A DNA stretch of 61,756 nt from contig PXUB01000004.1 in assembly GCA_003009755.1 (NCBI GenBank), positions 1 to 61,756 of the forward strand. Direction: 5' to 3'. The notes beneath the pieces were generated by a model that was given only the letters and a program-made list of their open reading frames with translations, was not told where the DNA came from and made no database searches. Made by a program: the position numbers and the translations under genes. This DNA comes from Thermoplasmatales archaeon SW_10_69_26. GTDB taxonomy: Archaea > Thermoplasmatota > SW-10-69-26. Below, piece by piece: positions 10,017-18,739 of this stretch; positions within the stretch are counted from its first letter, which is position 1, and every line of letters starts with the position of its first letter.

Positions 10017-10243
10017 CGGGACCAGCGACACGCTCCCGGCTCTTGAGAGTACGGCCGACCGAGGACACCACCGAGGCCCTGCGAATGCGGAGGCCGCGTC
10101 CCCGGGCCCACCAGGTACGGCTCGGCCTCGGCAGAGCCCGACCGACGGCAACCACCGCCGAGGTCGGGCGGATCCGCGGGATCGGGCCCTTCGGCCGAGC
10201 TTCGCCCCATGACCGAAGACCCTGGAGATGGGTCAACACCCAG

Positions 10244-10579
10244 ATGCACCGCTGGCTGCGCGCCGCGCTCGTGTACGCCCTCGGCATCGGGCTCGTCCTG
10301 TTCGGGGTCGCGGGCCTCGTGTTGCCCTTCCACCCGGGCCTGGTCGTGATCGCGCTCGGGTTGGGCGTCTTGTCCTTGGAGTCCAAGACGGCCCGGCGGG
10401 CTCGCCAGCGGTTCCTCGCCTGGCTGGCCGAGCGCGAGATCGAATCCGAGCGATTCGATCGTTGGCGCTCGCGCATCGAGGCGTGGGCCCCGGAGGACGA
10501 TCCCGCGGACGGTGGGGGCTGCGAGGACGGTGAGGGGCCCGGCGAGGGCGGCGAGCAGGAACGAGAACCGCGGGGCTGA
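10244..10579 (+). CDS. Small membrane protein, PGPGW-family-like
   Basis: [31 protein letters not shown]...ARR pattern. Confidence 0.65.
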
Positions 10580-10619
10580 GCGAGAGGGGAAGACGGGAGA
10601 AGAAAGGGGAAGCGCGCCC

Positions 10620-11099
10620 CTTGCGAGCGCCCGTGCAGACGAGCTTGCCGGAGCCGAAGAGGAGCACGACGACCTTGGGATCGTCCAGCCGGTAAACCAG
10701 GCCAGGGAACTGCTCGGGCTCGTACTCGACGTACTCGAGGCCGAGCCCGATCGCGATCGCGTTGAGGTTCAGGTCGGACTCGAGGTCGGCGGAGGCGACG
10801 ATGTTCTGGACCTGGATGTCCGGCTCGCGGTTGACCTTGACGCCGGCGTCCTCGATGCGCTGGGTGACGATGTTCACCGCGCGCTCGACGTCGTCGACGC
10901 TTTTGGCCCCCGTGCAGACGACCTTCCCGCTGCGGAAGAGGAGGGCCGCGGTCTTGGGATCCTTGAGCCGGCAGACCAGGCCGGGGAACTGCTCGGGCTC
11001 GTACTCGGCGTTGTCGAGCGCGAGCGCGATGCTCTGAAGGTCGAGCTCCGTGTCGAGGGAGGTCGACGCGACAACGTTCTCGATCTTGATCTTCGTCAT
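10620..11099 (-). CDS. tbp: TATA-box binding protein, C-terminally truncated (ORF reads on to 10233)
   Basis: Two TBP repeats ([31 protein letters not shown] and [33 protein letters not shown]); homology stops abruptly after GARK, with no final helix or stop codon. Confidence 0.9.
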
Positions 11100-11120
11100 G
11101 ATGACTCCCGGCAACCCGCG

Positions 11121-12847: not shown

Positions 12848-12889
12848 GGACCCGATCCCGCGCCGGGTCGGCGCGCCCGAGCCGGCAGC

Positions 12890-13763
12890 TTACGCGCGGC
12901 CGGCGGCGATGAGGTGGTCGGCCAGGCGGTCGCTGATGGGGTACCCGGTCTCGTCCTCGAAGACGGCGAACATGGGGGAGGGGTTGCACTCGAGGAACCA
13001 GGGGTCGCCCTCCTCGTCGAGGATGAGGTCCAGGCCCGTGTAGGTCATCTGGGAGGCCTCCCTCGCCGTCCGGCAGAGCTCTTCGACGTCGTCGGCGAGC
13101 TCGACGGGTTCGACCTCGGTCTCGGCGGCGCGGTAGTCGACGCGTTCGTCGGGGTCGAAGCGGAAGCGACCGGCCGCGATCGTGTCGTCGATGACGAACA
13201 CGCGGTGGTGGTCGCCGTCGACGAGCCGCTGCAGGAACACGGGCTCGGTGTCGAAGGCCTCGCGTCGTTCGCGGACGACCTCGGGCGTGACCTCGAGCAC
13301 GTGGCGGCGGCCGCCGCGGGGCTTGTAGACGACGCGGTCGTGCTGCTCGGCGAACGCGATGGCGTCCTCGGGGTCGGTGGTGACCTGGAAGGCGGGAACC
13401 GGGACGCCGGCGTCCTCCATGCGAGCCAGCTGGTAGCTTTTGCGAAGGTGGTCGTAGACGGAGCGGGGTGGGTTGACGACGGTCGACGCCTCGGCCAGGA
13501 TCTCGAGGATCGAGCCGATCGTGATCGCTTTCTCGGTCTCGGCGGCGTGCCAGGAGCGGTAGCGGTCGTAGAAGGCATCCCACTGCTCGGGCGTGGGTTC
13601 GTCGGGTAGGATGGGGTCCCACAGGCCCAGCCGGCGGGCGTACCAGGCGGCCACGTCGTCGACGGGTTCGCCGTCGATCTGCAACGAGGGGGTCTCGTCG
13701 ACGGCCAGCGTCACGGACAGCTCGCTGGGATCCTGGGTGGGGACCGATGAGACCGATGCGCAA
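12890..13763 (-). CDS. ATP-grasp ligase, RimK/graspetide-synthetase-like; frameshifted near 13740
   Basis: AWYARR, VVNPP...KSYQL, GVPVP..TTDP, VVYKPRGG, PVFLQRLVDG, RVFVI, VDYR, YTGLDLI and FLECNPSPMF motifs; the natural-looking start TTG-MRIGLIGP (13763) is in a different frame from the body. Confidence 0.85.
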
Positions 13764-13780
13764 GGGATCAACTCGGGAAC

Positions 13781-13827
13781 GGGAGAGAGGAGAAGAAAGA
13801 AGAGACGAGAGCTCGCGAGGGCGAGCT
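13781..13827 (-). terminator. Hairpin plus pyrimidine tract between the precursor and ligase genes
   Basis: Perfect 7-bp stem AGCTCGC-N4-GCGAGCT (13810-13827) followed on the minus strand by CTCGTCTCTTCTTTCTTCTTCTCC. Confidence 0.55.
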
Positions 13828-13922
13828 TAGAAGGGGCACTCCTCGCCGAGGGCTTGCGTCGTCTGCCTGGGCTCGGGCTCGGGCGGTTCGCTGTCGTTGA
13901 CGGGTTCGAAGAGCTCACTCAT
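13827..13922 (-). CDS. Putative graspetide (omega-ester RiPP) precursor peptide, 31 aa: MSELFEPVNDSEPPEPEPRQTTQALGEECPF
   Basis: Translated by hand (absent from the ORF track); ATG 13922, TAA 13827-13829; GGAGA RBS and TTATAT box (13959-13964) upstream; TTxxxxEE core; directly upstream of the ATP-grasp gene. Confidence 0.8.
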   Translation of the reverse strand: MSELFEPVNDSEPPEPEPRQTTQALGEECPF

Positions 13923-14045
13923 GTGTGGTTCTCCCGTGGCTGGCTATCGCGTTCGTCGATATAATGGTTGCGATGGACGGGCTCGGACGGCTGGGGTCGA
14001 CGTCGATCGGTTCGCCCGGCGGCGTGACGGGGAAGCGGGCCCGGT

Positions 14046-14396
14046 CTACAGCGTGTCCTCGACATCGAAGTCGAGGGTATCCCACTCGTCGGTCTCGGCT
14101 TTGATGCCGATCTGGTGCGCCCCGTCCTCGATCTCGTCGTCGGAGACGACCCGCACCTCGACTCCCTTGTCGAGGTCGAAGGGGCTGTCCTCGGTGATGT
14201 CCTCGGCGGGGATCGGATCTCCGTCGAGCTCGAAGGCGATGTCGACGGGGGTCCCGTCGATCTGGACCTCGGGCGGGGCCACGATCGTGGCCGTCGCCAG
14301 GTTGTTCTTGAGCTTGAAGGCGAACCCGCCTTCCTCGCGTGCCTCGAGGCTGTCGTCGACGTAGAGCTTCTTCAGCATGAACGACGGGACGCGCAC
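14046..14396 (-). CDS. Conserved-looking small beta-rich hypothetical protein
   Basis: VPSFMLKKLYVDDSL..GFAFKLKNNLATATI; acidic composition; GTG start inferred. Confidence 0.7.
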   Translation of the reverse strand: MRVPSFMLKKLYVDDSLEAREEGGFAFKLKNNLATATIVAPPEVQIDGTPVDIAFELDGDPIPAEDITEDSPFDLDKGVEVRVVSDDEIEDGAHQIGIKAETDEWDTLDFDVEDTL

Positions 14397-14437: not shown

Positions 14438-14827
14438 CTATCCTTGGTCGTCGGGCGGGCTGAGCTCGTCGGGCGGCGAGATGTGGGCCTCGACGAACGC
14501 TGTGAGTTCGGCCAGCGCCTCCACGAGGTCGTCCTCGTCCGTGCCGAGCTCGGCGTTGGCGATCGCGGTGAAGCGCTCGCGCTTGGCCGGGTCGATCCCG
14601 GTGTCGGTCTCGTCGGCCACGCGCAGGATGCTTTTGGCGGCGGTCGCGGCGAGCAGCTTGGTCGGGCGACCCAGGTCGCTGTCGAGCGTGACGCGGGCGC
14701 CGTGCAGGTACTCGAAGGGCCGCTCGAAAGGCCCGGCGTCGGGGACGACGTCCCGGTCGGGGACCATGTCCTCCTCGATCTCGGGCCAGTCGGCGTCGTC
14801 GGGGACGTCGGCTATGCGGTCCGCCAT
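14438..14827 (-). CDS. Hypothetical protein overlapping the end of cysS
   Basis: 129-aa acidic ORF with GGAGG upstream of its ATG. Confidence 0.6.
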   Translation of the reverse strand: MADRIADVPDDADWPEIEEDMVPDRDVVPDAGPFERPFEYLHGARVTLDSDLGRPTKLLAATAAKSILRVADETDTGIDPAKRERFTAIANAELGTDEDDLVEALAELTAFVEAHISPPDELSPPDDQG

Positions 14828-16216
14828 CGGGGTCCCTCCTCGGTGTCCTCGACCTCGATGTCCATCTCGGCGAGCTCGTCGCGGACCTCGTCGGCGATCT
14901 CGTAGACCTCGTGGTCGCGTGCCATCTCGCGGACCTCCAACAGCAGATCCAGCAGCTCGGGCTCGCGGCCGCCGGGGCCCTCCTCCGCGGGCACGACGGC
15001 GAACACGTCGTCCAGCAGCTCGTAGAAACCCTCGACGGCGTCGGTGACATCCGGGTGGGGCGTCGTCTCGTCGAGGTAGGTGTTGAGTTCACGCACGAGC
15101 TCGTGAGCGTGCGCCAGGGCGCCGGGCGTGTCGAAGTCGTCGTTCATGGACGCACGGACGCCCTCGCGGGCGTCCTCGATCGCGCCGAGCAGCTGCTCGT
15201 CACGGTCCGCGCGCCCGTCGTCTCGGGTTGGGGTGTCCTGGAAGCGTTGCAGCGGGCCGACGAGCCGGTCGAGGCTGCGTTCGGCCTCCTCGAGGGCCTT
15301 CCAGGAGAAGTCGATCGGGGAGCGGTAGTGGGTCTGCGCGACGAGCAGGCGGACGGCTTCGGCCCGGTGCTCGTCGAGGACCTCCTCGGCGGTGACGAAG
15401 TTGCCCAGGCTCTTGGACATCTTCTCGTCCCCGACGGTCACGAAGCCGGTGTGCATCCAGTACTTGCAGAAGGGCGTCTCGCCGGTGGCGGCCTCGGATT
15501 GCGCGATCTCGTTCTCGTGGTGGGGGAACTCGAGGTCCTGGCCGCCGCCGTGGATGTCGATGCGGGGGCCCAGGATCGAGGTGGCCATCACGCTGCACTC
15601 GATGTGCCAGCCGGGTCGTCCCTCGCCCCAAGGGCTGTCCCAGGAGGGCTCACCGGGCTTGGCCTTCTTCCACAGCGCGAAGTCGCGGGGGTCGTCCTTG
15701 CCTTCGCCCTCGACGTCGCGGTGCTCCTCGAGGAGGGCCTCGGGGTCCATGTTCGACAGCTTGCCGTAGTCGTCGAAGCTGTCGACGTCGAAGTACAGGT
15801 TGCCCTCGGCCTCGTAGGCGTGCCCGTTGTCCTGGATGGCCCGGTTGGTGTCGATGACGTGCCGGATGTGGTCGGAGACCTTGGGCCAGTGGTGGGCGCG
15901 CTCGAGCCTCGTCGAACAGGGCCTCGGCCTTCGCGTGCTCGCGGAGGGCGACCTCGAGCGGGTCCTCGCCGGTCTCCTCGGCGTAGTCGATGATCTTGTC
16001 CTCGACGTCGGTGATGTTCTGGACGTGGATGACGTCGTAGCCCTCGTGCTCGAGCCAGCGGCGCACGATGTCGAACGCGATGTAGGTGCGCGCGTGCCCG
16101 GCGTGGATGTCCGTGTAGGGGGTGAGCCCGCAGACGTACAGGCGAACCTTGTCCTCCGCGAGAGGCTCGAAGGTCTCCTCCTCCCCCGTCAGGCTGTTCG
16201 AGATGCGCAAAGGCAT
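14812..16216 (-). CDS. cysS: Cysteine--tRNA ligase with a frameshift at ~15907
   Basis: YVCGLTPY, HAGHAR (HIGH-like), NITDVEDKII, DFALWK, GRPGWHIECS, DIHGGGQDLEFPHHENE and KMSKSLGN motifs; the frame changes at LFDE-g-LERAHH. Confidence 0.95.
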
Positions 16217-17272: not shown

Positions 17273-18739
17273 TCAGCCTGAGGCCCCGCTCGCGGCCACG
17301 CGACCGGCGCGGGCGTCGCCGGTCGCGGTGAGGGCCAGGCACGTCGGGTGGATGGCGACCTCGCCGTTCCCGACGCGGGACTCGCAGGCGGTGGCGTCGC
17401 CGGTCGTCGCGCCCCCGGTCCCGCCGACCGCGACGTGGGTGCACTCGGCGTCGCCGCCGAGGTGCGCGCACGGCGGGTCGAAGGGGTCCGAGGTCTCGCT
17501 GTCGAGGGCCTCGGTGCTGGTGGGGACGTAGGCGGGTCGACCGCTCAGGGCGGCGACGGGGTCGACCATGCCGTGGCCGTAGGCTTCGTCGTGGCCGTCG
17601 TCGCCGAGGTCGCGGGCGGTCTCGTTGAGGCGGTCGCGGACGTCGGCAGGCGTCATCGAGGGGTCCTGATCGAGCAGCATGGCACCGGTGGCGGTCACGT
17701 GCGGGGCGGCCATGCTCGTCCCGGAGTAGAAGCCGTAGGCGCCGGGCAGGGTGGAGAGCACGAGGCTGCCGGGCGCGGCGAGCTCGACCTGGGGTCCCCG
17801 GCAGCTGTAGTCGGCCGCCTGCAACGCAGGGTCGGTGGCGGCGACGGCGAGGGCTTCCGCGTGGATCGCAGGGTGTCGCACGCACTCGCTGGGATCGGAC
17901 TGTTGCGCGTTGCCGGCGGAGACGACGACGAGCACGCCGGCCTCCCAGGCCTGCCGGATCGCTTCGTGGAGCGGCTCCCAGTGGATGGTGCAGTGGCCGC
18001 TGAGGTTGATGACGTCGGCGCCGGCGTCGACGCTGTCGACGATGGCAGAGGCCATGTCGCTGCAGAACCCGCCGTCGGGACCGAACACGCGCGTGACGAA
18101 GAGGTCGGCCATCGTCATGCCGGCGACGCCGCGGTCGTTGTCGCGGATCGCCGAGGCGATCCCGGTCACGTGGGAGCCGTGGCCGGTCGTGTCCACGGGG
18201 TTGTCGTCGCCGTCGATGTAGTCGTGGCCCATCGTGACCCGGTCGGTGGGGAGGTCGGGATGCTGGATCGCGATGCCGCTGTCGACGACGGCGATCGTCG
18301 GCGAAACGTCGGGTCCGGCGATCGCCCAGGCTTGCGGGGCGTTGAGCTCGAGGGGACCCCACTGGGCGCCGAGGTAGGCGTCCAGCGGCACCTCGGCCGT
18401 CGGCGTGCGCGCGGCCGGCTGGCCCCGGGGATCGGGCGAGGGGGCCTGACCCGCCTCGGTCTCGAAAGCCTCGGGGTCCTCGAGCGCGAGCACGGCGAAC
18501 CCGAGGTGGGCGTCGGTGCGGACGAGGTGCCCGCCGGCGGCCTCGAGGCCCTTACGGAGCTCGGCGTCGGTCAACGCGTCGGTGTCGACGGTGTAGCGGT
18601 CCTCGGGAGCCGGGTCCGAGCCGGGATCGGTCTCGAGCCCGAGCCCTCCGCTAGCGACGGCCACGATCGCGACGACTGCGACGAGCAGCCATCCCATCGA
18701 CGGAGCTGTGCCTCCCGTTCGTTCGAGGTCGGCCTCCAC
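17273..18739 (-). CDS. Secreted subtilisin-like serine protease (S8)
   Basis: Signal peptide; catalytic motifs AVVDSG, GHGSHVTG, VSAGN and SGTSMAAPHV. Confidence 0.93.
   Translation of the reverse strand: MEADLERTGGTAPSMGWLLVAVVAIVAVASGGLGLETDPGSDPAPEDRYTVDTDALTDAELRKGLEAAGGHLVRTDAHLGFAVLALEDPEAFETEAGQAPSPDPRGQPAARTPTAEVPLDAYLGAQWGPLELNAPQAWAIAGPDVSPTIAVVDSGIAIQHPDLPTDRVTMGHDYIDGDDNPVDTTGHGSHVTGIASAIRDNDRGVAGMTMADLFVTRVFGPDGGFCSDMASAIVDSVDAGADVINLSGHCTIHWEPLHEAIRQAWEAGVLVVVSAGNAQQSDPSECVRHPAIHAEALAVAATDPALQAADYSCRGPQVELAAPGSLVLSTLPGAYGFYSGTSMAAPHVTATGAMLLDQDPSMTPADVRDRLNETARDLGDDGHDEAYGHGMVDPVAALSGRPAYVPTSTEALDSETSDPFDPPCAHLGGDAECTHVAVGGTGGATTGDATACESRVGNGEVAIHPTCLALTATGDARAGRVAASGASG

Follow-up and report, generated by a model that had tools for sequence, protein, structure and literature searches.

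The window analysed here, that is, the whole stretch of 61,756 nucleotides (nt) from contig PXUB01000004.1 of Thermoplasmatales archaeon SW_10_69_26, carries on its minus strand a 31-residue open reading frame (ORF) that includes the motif TTQALGEE, followed by a co-oriented gene for an ATP-grasp ligase. With a probability of roughly 0.8, we take the pair for the precursor and ligase genes of a two-gene graspetide cassette of the plesiocin type (group 2), carried by a Thermoplasmatota archaeon that lives in halite. An initial annotation of the sequence had proposed a cluster of this kind. The ORF at 13922-13827 translates exactly as given there, and the TATA-like box (ATTATAT, 13965-13959) and the GGAGA ribosome-binding site (13934-13930) are present. 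The co-oriented ATP-grasp gene also lies downstream as described, although the spacing, reported as 64 nt, is 63 nt when measured from the precursor stop to the next co-oriented start (TTG, 13763). The features of the locus, in the direction of transcription, are as follows.

13959..13965, minus strand: TATA-like box ATTATAT, 37-43 nt 5' of the precursor ATG; putative archaeal promoter element.
13930..13934, minus strand: Shine-Dalgarno-like GGAGA, 7 nt 5' of the precursor ATG; read from the sequence.
13827..13922, minus strand: precursor gene, 31 residues plus stop, ATG to TAA; translation MSELFEPVNDSEPPEPEPRQTTQALGEECPF, read from the sequence.
13810..13827, minus strand: 7-bp hairpin AGCUCGC/GCGAGCU with a 4-nt loop, beginning at the last base of the precursor stop codon.
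13743..13763, minus strand: first seven codons of the ligase (LRIGLIG, TTG start), in another frame than the gene body; they match the N-terminus of the ortholog P0006 (LRIGLIGP...).
13739..13742, minus strand: deletion junction CCCC, with 74 nt missing relative to other contigs, a frameshift and 25 residues removed.
12890..13742, minus strand: remainder of the gene for the PsnB-like ATP-grasp macrocyclase, starting at the junction and ending with a TAA stop; it has AWYAR-R (at the site of PsnB Arg72), HHR-VFVIDD (at that of Arg213), DYR (at the DFR loop) and LECNP.

The precursor consists of a leader (residues 1-20, with L4-F5 in ELFEPV), a core (T21-T22-Q-A-L-G-E27-E28) and a tail (C29-P30-F31). 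The core TTQALGEE, at residues 21-28, has the form of the group 2 core motif TTxxxxEE, and a six-frame count over the 123,508 codon positions of the window found this motif once, in the 31-residue ORF. The GC content of the ORF at codon positions 1/2/3 (0.66/0.44/0.84) keeps the pattern of the neighbouring real genes (0.73-0.74/0.41-0.55/0.92-0.95), which is absent from both shifted frames. Among the precursor genes of the relatives described below, four have, at a comparable distance, a box ('CGCTTATC') similar to the ATTATAT of the window, and sites of the GGAGG type are likewise present in four. In comparison with contigs of the metagenome runs X2 and X3, none of the 41 listed differences (41 of 106, and hence weak evidence) falls inside the precursor ORF, while several fall in the spacer (13780-13800) and 5' of the ORF (13938-13944). 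The hairpin at 13810-13827 has a minimum free energy of -13.5 kcal/mol (z -2.72), with equally good folding in 2 of 200 shuffles, and a pyrimidine/U-rich tract lies directly 3' of it. It is a putative terminator or attenuator between precursor and ligase.

Ligase family and catalytic residues

Sequence searches and a modelled fold place the window ligase among the graspetide macrocyclases, closest to PsnB, and outside the RimK/LysX/MptN group. A profile built from the window protein and three relatives (profile A1) was searched against the PDB. Its best match is PsnB (7drm) at full length with an E-value of 1.3e-55, followed by 9bou (5e-23), MdnC 5ig9 (9.7e-15), MdnB 5ig8 (1.8e-12) and then AMdnB and CdnC, and the RimK/LysX-type chains match the C-terminal half at 1.9e-8 to 1.7e-3. 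With the window protein alone or the intact ortholog P0006 as query, the top PDB entry is again PsnB (1.7e-31 and 4.9e-37, respectively). We then turned to the fold. The AlphaFold model of P0006 has a predicted local distance difference test (pLDDT) value of 87.0 and a predicted template modelling (pTM) score of 0.85, and Foldseek puts PsnB (7drm/7drn/7dro/7drp) at the top of its matches, with a template modelling score of 0.83 and 31% identity. PruB, AMdnB, MdnC, CdnC and MdnB come next, ranks 1-31 are graspetide macrocyclases throughout, and LysX and RimK appear from rank 32. The best NCBIfam model for the window ligase is TIGR04187, a maturase of peptides made by the ribosome and modified after translation (RiPPs), at 5.1e-29 and 101.5 bits, ahead of MptN (2.2e-20), the RimK family (1.1e-15), MvdC (3.2e-14) and LysX (1.4e-11). 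A comparison of the ligase with RimK, LysX and their like, which the initial annotation had proposed as a check, therefore came out on the side of the graspetide enzymes by profile, hidden Markov model and fold searches alike.

The ligase could instead be a housekeeping glutamate ligase of the RimK/LysX/MptN type, with the 31-residue ORF a chance reading frame and not a gene. Such a reading would agree with Pfam, which gives a RimK-like ATP-grasp domain alone (7.6e-9), with the NCBIfam matches to MptN and the RimK family, and with the names of close homologs in the JGI data ('glutathione synthase/RimK-type ligase-like'). However, the scores for the glutamate ligase models stay far under their cut-offs (57.7 vs 143.4 for rimK_fam, 72.9 vs 350 for MptN, 44 vs 275.6 for LysX), and at least 47 orders of magnitude separate the E-value of PsnB, the top fold match, from the weaker ones of the RimK/LysX-type chains. 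The gene is also absent in all five family relatives searched, where the syntenic site is empty in two and holds other genes in the rest, and the ORF has the only TTxxxxEE of the window and has homologs next to homologous ligases. We regard a housekeeping ligase beside a chance ORF as very improbable.

The residues of the ligase were compared with those of PsnB. According to the PsnB preprint (10.1101/2021.03.09.434688), Arg72, Arg213 and a D(F/W)R loop at 233-235 are conserved and critical, and the pocket for the leader Phe15 is formed by Tyr171/Ile193/Leu196/Val201/Phe203. Arg101, which is conserved in group 2a only, binds the second Glu and is largely dispensable for activity. The preprint also gives TTxxxxEE as core, LFIEDL as leader motif and 'AIGEE' as core end, names an engineered 25-residue stretch of PsnA2 (14-38) as minimal precursor, and states that phosphorylation and cyclisation by PsnB are efficient solely with the native TTxxxxEE. 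By our own count on the alignment, the numbering of the PsnB chain in the PDB is offset by +20 from that of the preprint. In the printed alignment the window ligase has Arg, Arg and Asp-Tyr-Arg at the sites of Arg72, Arg213 and the DFR loop, the loop aromatic being Tyr where the definition has Phe or Trp. The columns of PsnB Arg72, Arg213 and Arg235 are invariant in all 24 aligned ligases, where they are R68, R212 and R236 of P0006, and the five pocket sites are Tyr/Arg/Phe/Val/Leu in the window ligase. The WYARR and VNPP features singled out by the initial annotation are thus real, since WYARR holds the invariant Arg that corresponds to PsnB Arg72 and VNPP holds an invariant Asn. Of the plesiocin motifs that it named, TTxxxxEE, LFIEDL and the 'AIGEE' end are borne out by the preprint; the full string TTLAIGEE is as given in the initial annotation. 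The spacing of leader and core is also that of PsnA2: F5 and T21 of the precursor are 16 residues apart, as are F15 and T31 of PsnA2, and L4-E28 covers 25 residues, like the minimal precursor PsnA2 14-38.

Related cassettes in other Thermoplasmatota

Ligase homologs were found in two of 40 relatives searched (G018 and G020, at E <=1e-10) and in six of 400 other genomes of the phylum (G018, G020, G049, G068, G142 and G318, at E <=1e-15). Small ORFs with a TTxxxxE core adjoin the ligase in five of the six homolog-bearing genomes, with four in G018, three in G020 and one each in G318, G068 and G049. A Thr/Glu-motif peptide beside orthologs, which the initial annotation had suggested looking for, therefore does occur. 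The cores of the relatives include TTQSCAETGC, TTYACGEE and TT(L/M)AIGEE. In G018 (L005 2086-2823), four tandem small ORFs lie 5' of the ligase, with MDPFEP(V/L/I) leaders and one MDPFAPL, and their cores are TTQSCAETGC (two), TTESCAETGC and TTYACGEEGNWC. In G020 (L006 2619-4221) there are three small ORFs with TTQSC(A/Q/V)ETGC and two ligases, each with its own precursor genes upstream. The low-GC (30-36%) genomes G318 (L014 602-3913) and G068 (L019 1495-3558) have two tandem ATP-grasp genes and then an ORF of 26-27 residues, MSNWNPKWYTTLAIGEEDDPWWPIVA or MSDFWKDKKYTTMAIGEEDEPWWPPIY, with the core TTLAIGEE or TTMAIGEE. An ABC transporter gene follows the small ORF in the G318 locus, and the G318 ligase, too, has PsnB as its top PDB entry (5.2e-26). 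With a leader of just 9 residues in G318 and G068, it may be the PWWP tail that serves for recognition. In G049, a 34-residue ORF with TTLAIGEE lies near the ligase. The ORF list of the G142 locus (L017 1393-3588, 62% GC) gave no recognised TTxxxxE peptide, with no motif search made there. The ligase of that locus is a different, TIGR04187-like one (138 bits), and a second ATP-grasp-like ORF and a 174-residue ORF without a Pfam match lie upstream of it.

An alignment of 12 peptides, namely the window precursor and 11 precursors of relatives, leaves only M1, T21, T22 and E27 (window numbering) invariant; C-terminal to the core, a Cys and a Pro-aromatic tail are seen repeatedly. FEPVN is common to the window peptide and one G018 precursor. 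None of the 12 precursors is matched by an NCBIfam model at E-values up to 10. In a set of 5.8 billion proteins a 51-residue precursor of a relative has two matches, itself and P0005; because small ORFs are often not called, this says little on rarity. A scan of genome contigs gave four loci, two of them already known and two weak Saprospiraceae matches, and a scan of metagenome contigs gave two loci with the same precursor peptides as those of G018 and G020.

The recurrence of the Cys and of the Pro-aromatic tail across the family bears on the chemistry of the product. The same class of enzyme could make another product, either with one ester only or with Cys29 or the C-terminal Pro-Phe in another link (a disulfide dimer or a thioester), and with a role such as signalling or antagonism. 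Six of the eight cores of the high-GC relatives are TTxxCxETGC, with one Glu and two Cys. A core of the form TTxSCxETGC can therefore carry at most one Thr-Glu ester, with a possible Cys-Cys link, and the window ligase lacks the Arg101 through which PsnB contacts the second Glu. The core of the window peptide is nevertheless a canonical TTxxxxEE with both Glu present, the PsnB work ties efficient phosphorylation and cyclisation to this native motif, and Arg101 is largely dispensable there. We consider a product other than the two-ester peptide improbable for the window.

In order to place the ligases relative to each other, a tree of 107 rows was calculated with FastTree (SH-like, that is, Shimodaira-Hasegawa-like, support only), with G142 as outgroup by choice. 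The rows include representatives P0017-P0129 of 285-360 residues; shorter, longer and fused ones, and those after P0129, were dropped. The window ligase, its halite relatives and those of G018 and G020 form a clade of 14 rows (support 99). Its sister clade, joined to it with support 99, has 28 rows and includes the low-GC archaeal ligases. The sole row named bacterial (Nannocystaceae, P0030) is placed in another sub-clade than the archaeal rows. Because most rows carry no taxonomy, we do not infer a donor or a direction of transfer. Ten of the representatives (P0032-P0037, P0041, P0042, P0044 and P0055; 634-683 residues, with two matched stretches each) are apparently fused double ATP-grasp ligases.

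These loci may belong to a plesiocin-type lineage of the Thermoplasmatota's own that has diversified with naturally 'minimal' single-core precursors of 26-51 residues. The halite and low-GC forms would keep the two-ester TTxxxxEE hairpin, and the G018/G020 form TTQSCAETGC would have swapped the outer ester for a Cys pair. We offer this as a speculative and rather doubtful scenario. If it held, the G018/G020 product would be a bicycle of an ester and a disulfide (or another Cys-linked bond), which is not described among graspetides.

Broken ligase frame and genomic setting

The initial annotation had hinted that the ligase needs repair, and this is the case: the frame of the first seven codons differs from that of the gene body, and some 25 residues have been lost. 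In a protein alignment with the 315-residue P0006, residues 9-33 are lost, and in the model of P0006 the lost segment is helix 12-23 (helix 1) and strand 27-31 (strand 2) of the N-domain. Among database proteins, the 11 closest relatives (P0006-P0016, 48-96% identity, with P0006 at 96% and the others at 79-48%) have 315-324 residues, except for one with 424. A GTG at about 13712 was considered as an alternative start and rejected; its product would lack helix 1 together with strands 1 and 2, and we consider it unlikely to work.

We then examined contigs of three DNA runs. Intact forms are found in X2 record 12 and X3 record 20, which have 70 extra letters that, with CCCC used twice, make up the 74 nt. 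X1 record 2, from the likely source run, is identical to the window over 12887-13742 and extends 71 letters further, into the missing segment. A 30-letter consensus listed for this X1 extension, translated by hand, gives ARGAEAVWLD, which is part of P0006. X1 record 7 stops at 13739. The deleted junction was not seen in any listed contig of the three runs, there being 36 more pieces beyond those listed. Two other apparent joints in this comparison were disregarded, with 21-letter sides and low likeness.

Two more genes on the contig are broken. The TBP gene (10233-11114, minus strand) has lost its last 22 codons and stop near 10620 when compared with three family relatives (...TGARQPEDAQRAVEKIRDELTGLGLLT*), and it reads on into about 125 residues of out-of-context sequence. 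The deletion there is about 69 nt, near the size of the 74-nt deletion in the ligase. The cysteinyl-tRNA synthetase (CysRS) gene (14812-16216, minus strand) has a frameshift near 15910, in comparison with G001, that results in two overlapping ORFs; since the frame changes within about 3 codons, the cause would be an indel of 1-2 nt. Frameshifts in this assembly should therefore not be taken as biology until the reads have been checked.

Because the undeleted gene is present in contigs from the same habitat, we attribute the break to a fault of the assembly or to a minor allele. With three breaks inside 6 kb, and two of these in genes expected to be essential, the former is the likelier cause, and we hold it to be probable; a minor deletion allele is a possibility of lesser weight. 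The deletion could also be real in a stronger sense, with the ligase a pseudogene, the precursor an unmodified orphan and the cassette in decay, while the system still functions in relatives from this habitat. Consistent with decay, the deletion sits at a 4-nt microhomology (CCCC) typical of slippage deletions, the X1 contigs break right at the junction (record 7) or 71 letters past 13742 (record 2), as a bubble of two alleles would, and the cassette is accessory and patchy, with homologs in 6 of 400 other genomes of the phylum. On the other side, the breaks in the TBP and CysRS genes point to a fault-prone assembly, and, of the contigs listed for the three runs, none has the deleted junction, against three that contain or run into the undeleted sequence. 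Decay seems to us unlikely, although it is the alternative that we take most seriously. The break is thus not evidence of a dead system in the population, and the cassette is very probably intact in nature.

The stretch is present in halite-metagenome runs of four studies, with long pieces of 95-100% identity from three runs, and the window encodes an archaeal TBP. The host is a halite-dwelling member of the Thermoplasmatota and not one of the classical haloarchaea (Halobacteria). The 'halophilic archaeon' of the initial annotation accordingly stands as to habitat, and not if it is taken to mean a member of the Halobacteria, since the class-mates are Thermoplasmatota. The cassette is flanked by housekeeping genes, between a convergent pair of HD-domain and HMG-CoA-reductase-N-like genes. 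The gene order in five family relatives is TBP, HD, the convergent HMG-CoA-reductase-N-like gene, a 129-residue gene and CysRS, and the gap between HD and HMG-CoA-reductase-N-like genes is 16-25 nt in two of them (G001 and G004). At the same spot, G003 (L026 2035-2679) has a 214-residue gene, a sulfotransferase by its look, G005 has a gap of a size similar to that of G003, and G002 (L022 2-1087) has a membrane-protein gene after HD. The ligase gene is absent from all five. Because the syntenic gap is empty or differently filled in the relatives, the cassette is an accessory insertion at a variable spot, and this spot is a small variable island in the family. A subtilase gene (17273-18739, minus strand; Peptidase_S8, 4.5e-45) lies about 3.4 kb off, with CysRS and other genes between. 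It is possible that the S8 subtilase is a target or a processing enzyme of the peptide, or equally that its presence is a coincidence.

Proposed mechanism and comparison with known systems

The steps of the proposed mechanism follow from homology to PsnB/PsnA2. The precursor would be expressed from its own promoter, and the hairpin after its stop would limit read-through into the ligase gene. L4-F5 of the leader would dock in the hydrophobic pocket of the ligase, which, with ATP, would phosphorylate the side chain of Glu27 and then that of Glu28, with the Arg equivalent to PsnB Arg213 as a guide. Attack by the Thr22 and Thr21 hydroxyls would then give two nested omega-ester rings, T22-E27 (inner) and T21-E28 (outer), around the loop QALG, with a loss of 36 Da. 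Leader removal and export would be left to genes elsewhere. The ring chemistry and the bioactivity of the window peptide are wholly inferred, by analogy. The likeliest role would be that of a protease-inhibiting hairpin peptide, which is the weakest step of the proposal. Plesiocin is said to inhibit proteases. In general terms, PMC8939145 describes characterised graspetides as protease inhibitors.

Several observations weigh against the two-ester cassette proposed here. All NCBIfam scores of the window ligase are far under the curated cut-offs, the best being 101.5 vs 350, and the RiPP models are outscored by the RimK family model in the case of the low-GC archaeal ligase, although PsnB remains the best PDB match of that ligase. 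The site of PsnB Arg101 is a Thr (in AETEK), and the ligase is therefore not of group 2a by this criterion. Most cores of G018 and G020 have a single Glu (ETG), and two esters are therefore no rule for the whole family. The ligase of the window assembly is frameshifted and without helix 1 and strand 2, so that the enzyme may be dead in this genome. No gene for a protease or peptidase other than the S8 subtilase, and no transporter gene (NHLM-type included), was recognised in the flanks (9.2-18.7 kb), and the single RNA contig matched to the stretch spans 14114-14292, outside the precursor and the cassette. A complex prediction for the undeleted ligase (alignment A3) with ATP and the precursor (alignment A2) scored 0.00 both times, without controls, and bears on the proposal neither way.

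To our knowledge, few archaeal RiPPs have been characterised, and haloarchaeal lanthipeptides are the main case. We searched the literature on graspetides and ester peptides in archaea and haloarchaea and on RiPP clusters of Thermoplasmatota and found no characterised archaeal graspetide, and survey supplements may list Thermoplasmatota. The database of Makarova et al. 2022 (PMC8939145) took in archaeal genomes, and the available main text describes no archaeal locus. The main text of a survey of archaeal RiPPs (10.1101/2024.10.07.616454) is without 'graspetide' or 'ATP-grasp'. A 2026 survey (PMC13097080) lists 21,584 predicted graspetides with a group 36 'only found in Thermoprotea', and describes NHLM-type transporters as frequent with group 2 clusters but not defining. 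The statement of the initial annotation that no characterised archaeal graspetide is known therefore agrees with our search, while its novelty is softened by the predicted Thermoprotea group. The graspetide class is known from bacteria, its archaeal members have so far been predicted (one group), and these loci may have been listed before.

The cassette is very easily tested, with one enzyme and a 31-residue substrate laid out like the minimal precursor of the PsnB structure, and it would show whether graspetide chemistry works in archaea and at high salt. The natural core variants provide a set for studying ligase specificity. Should the secreted subtilases that dominate hypersaline communities be inhibited by the halite peptide, this would be the first archaeal graspetide with a function, and the system would offer a salt-adapted macrocyclase for peptide engineering.

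Among known systems, plesiocin PsnA2/PsnB from Plesiocystis pacifica (group 2, PDB 7DRM/7DRN/7DRO/7DRP) has the closest ligase in both sequence and fold. The core TTxxxxEE is common to both, with the end ALGEE in the window and AIGEE in the PsnB paper, and in both PsnA2 and the window peptide the leader Leu-Phe lies 16 residues before the first Thr. Plesiocin has four cores while the window precursor has one, and the latter, at 31 residues, is about the size of the engineered 25-residue minimal PsnA2 precursor. Further differences are in the leader (ELFEPV vs LFIEDL) and in the ligase, where Arg101 and the DFR loop of PsnB are Thr and DYR. Unlike the plesiocin locus, that of the window has no recognised transporter or peptidase, an archaeal, halophilic and high-GC host, and a ligase frame that is broken in the assembly.

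The paper on Rheinheimera RcpA/RcpB (PMC11626197) describes likewise a single ATP-grasp ligase beside a TTxxxxEE precursor, co-expression of which gave ester-type dehydrations with up to five waters lost. Unlike the window precursor, RcpA has three motifs (TTxxxxEE, TTxxxED and VTxxxxED), the host is bacterial, and the cluster belongs to a multi-BGC (a multiple biosynthetic gene cluster). The other Thermoplasmatota cassettes have ligases of 30-43% identity and, as in the window, single-core mini-precursors (26-51 residues) with a Pro-aromatic tail. The leader FEP(V/L/I) of G018 is common with the window peptide, whereas the four tandem precursors of G018 and the two ligases of G020 are not found in the window. 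MdnB/MdnC (group 1), PruB, CdnC and AMdnB have the same macrocyclase fold with D(F/W)R-type and Arg213-type features (fold ranks 15-31), but they match more weakly in sequence (E 1e-11 to 1e-23 vs 1e-55) and have other core motifs and ring patterns. Finally, RimK, LysX and MptN have the ATP-grasp fold in common with the window ligase, whose gene, in contrast to theirs, is accessory, lacks a LysW or S6 context and is paired with a peptide that has a Thr/Glu core.

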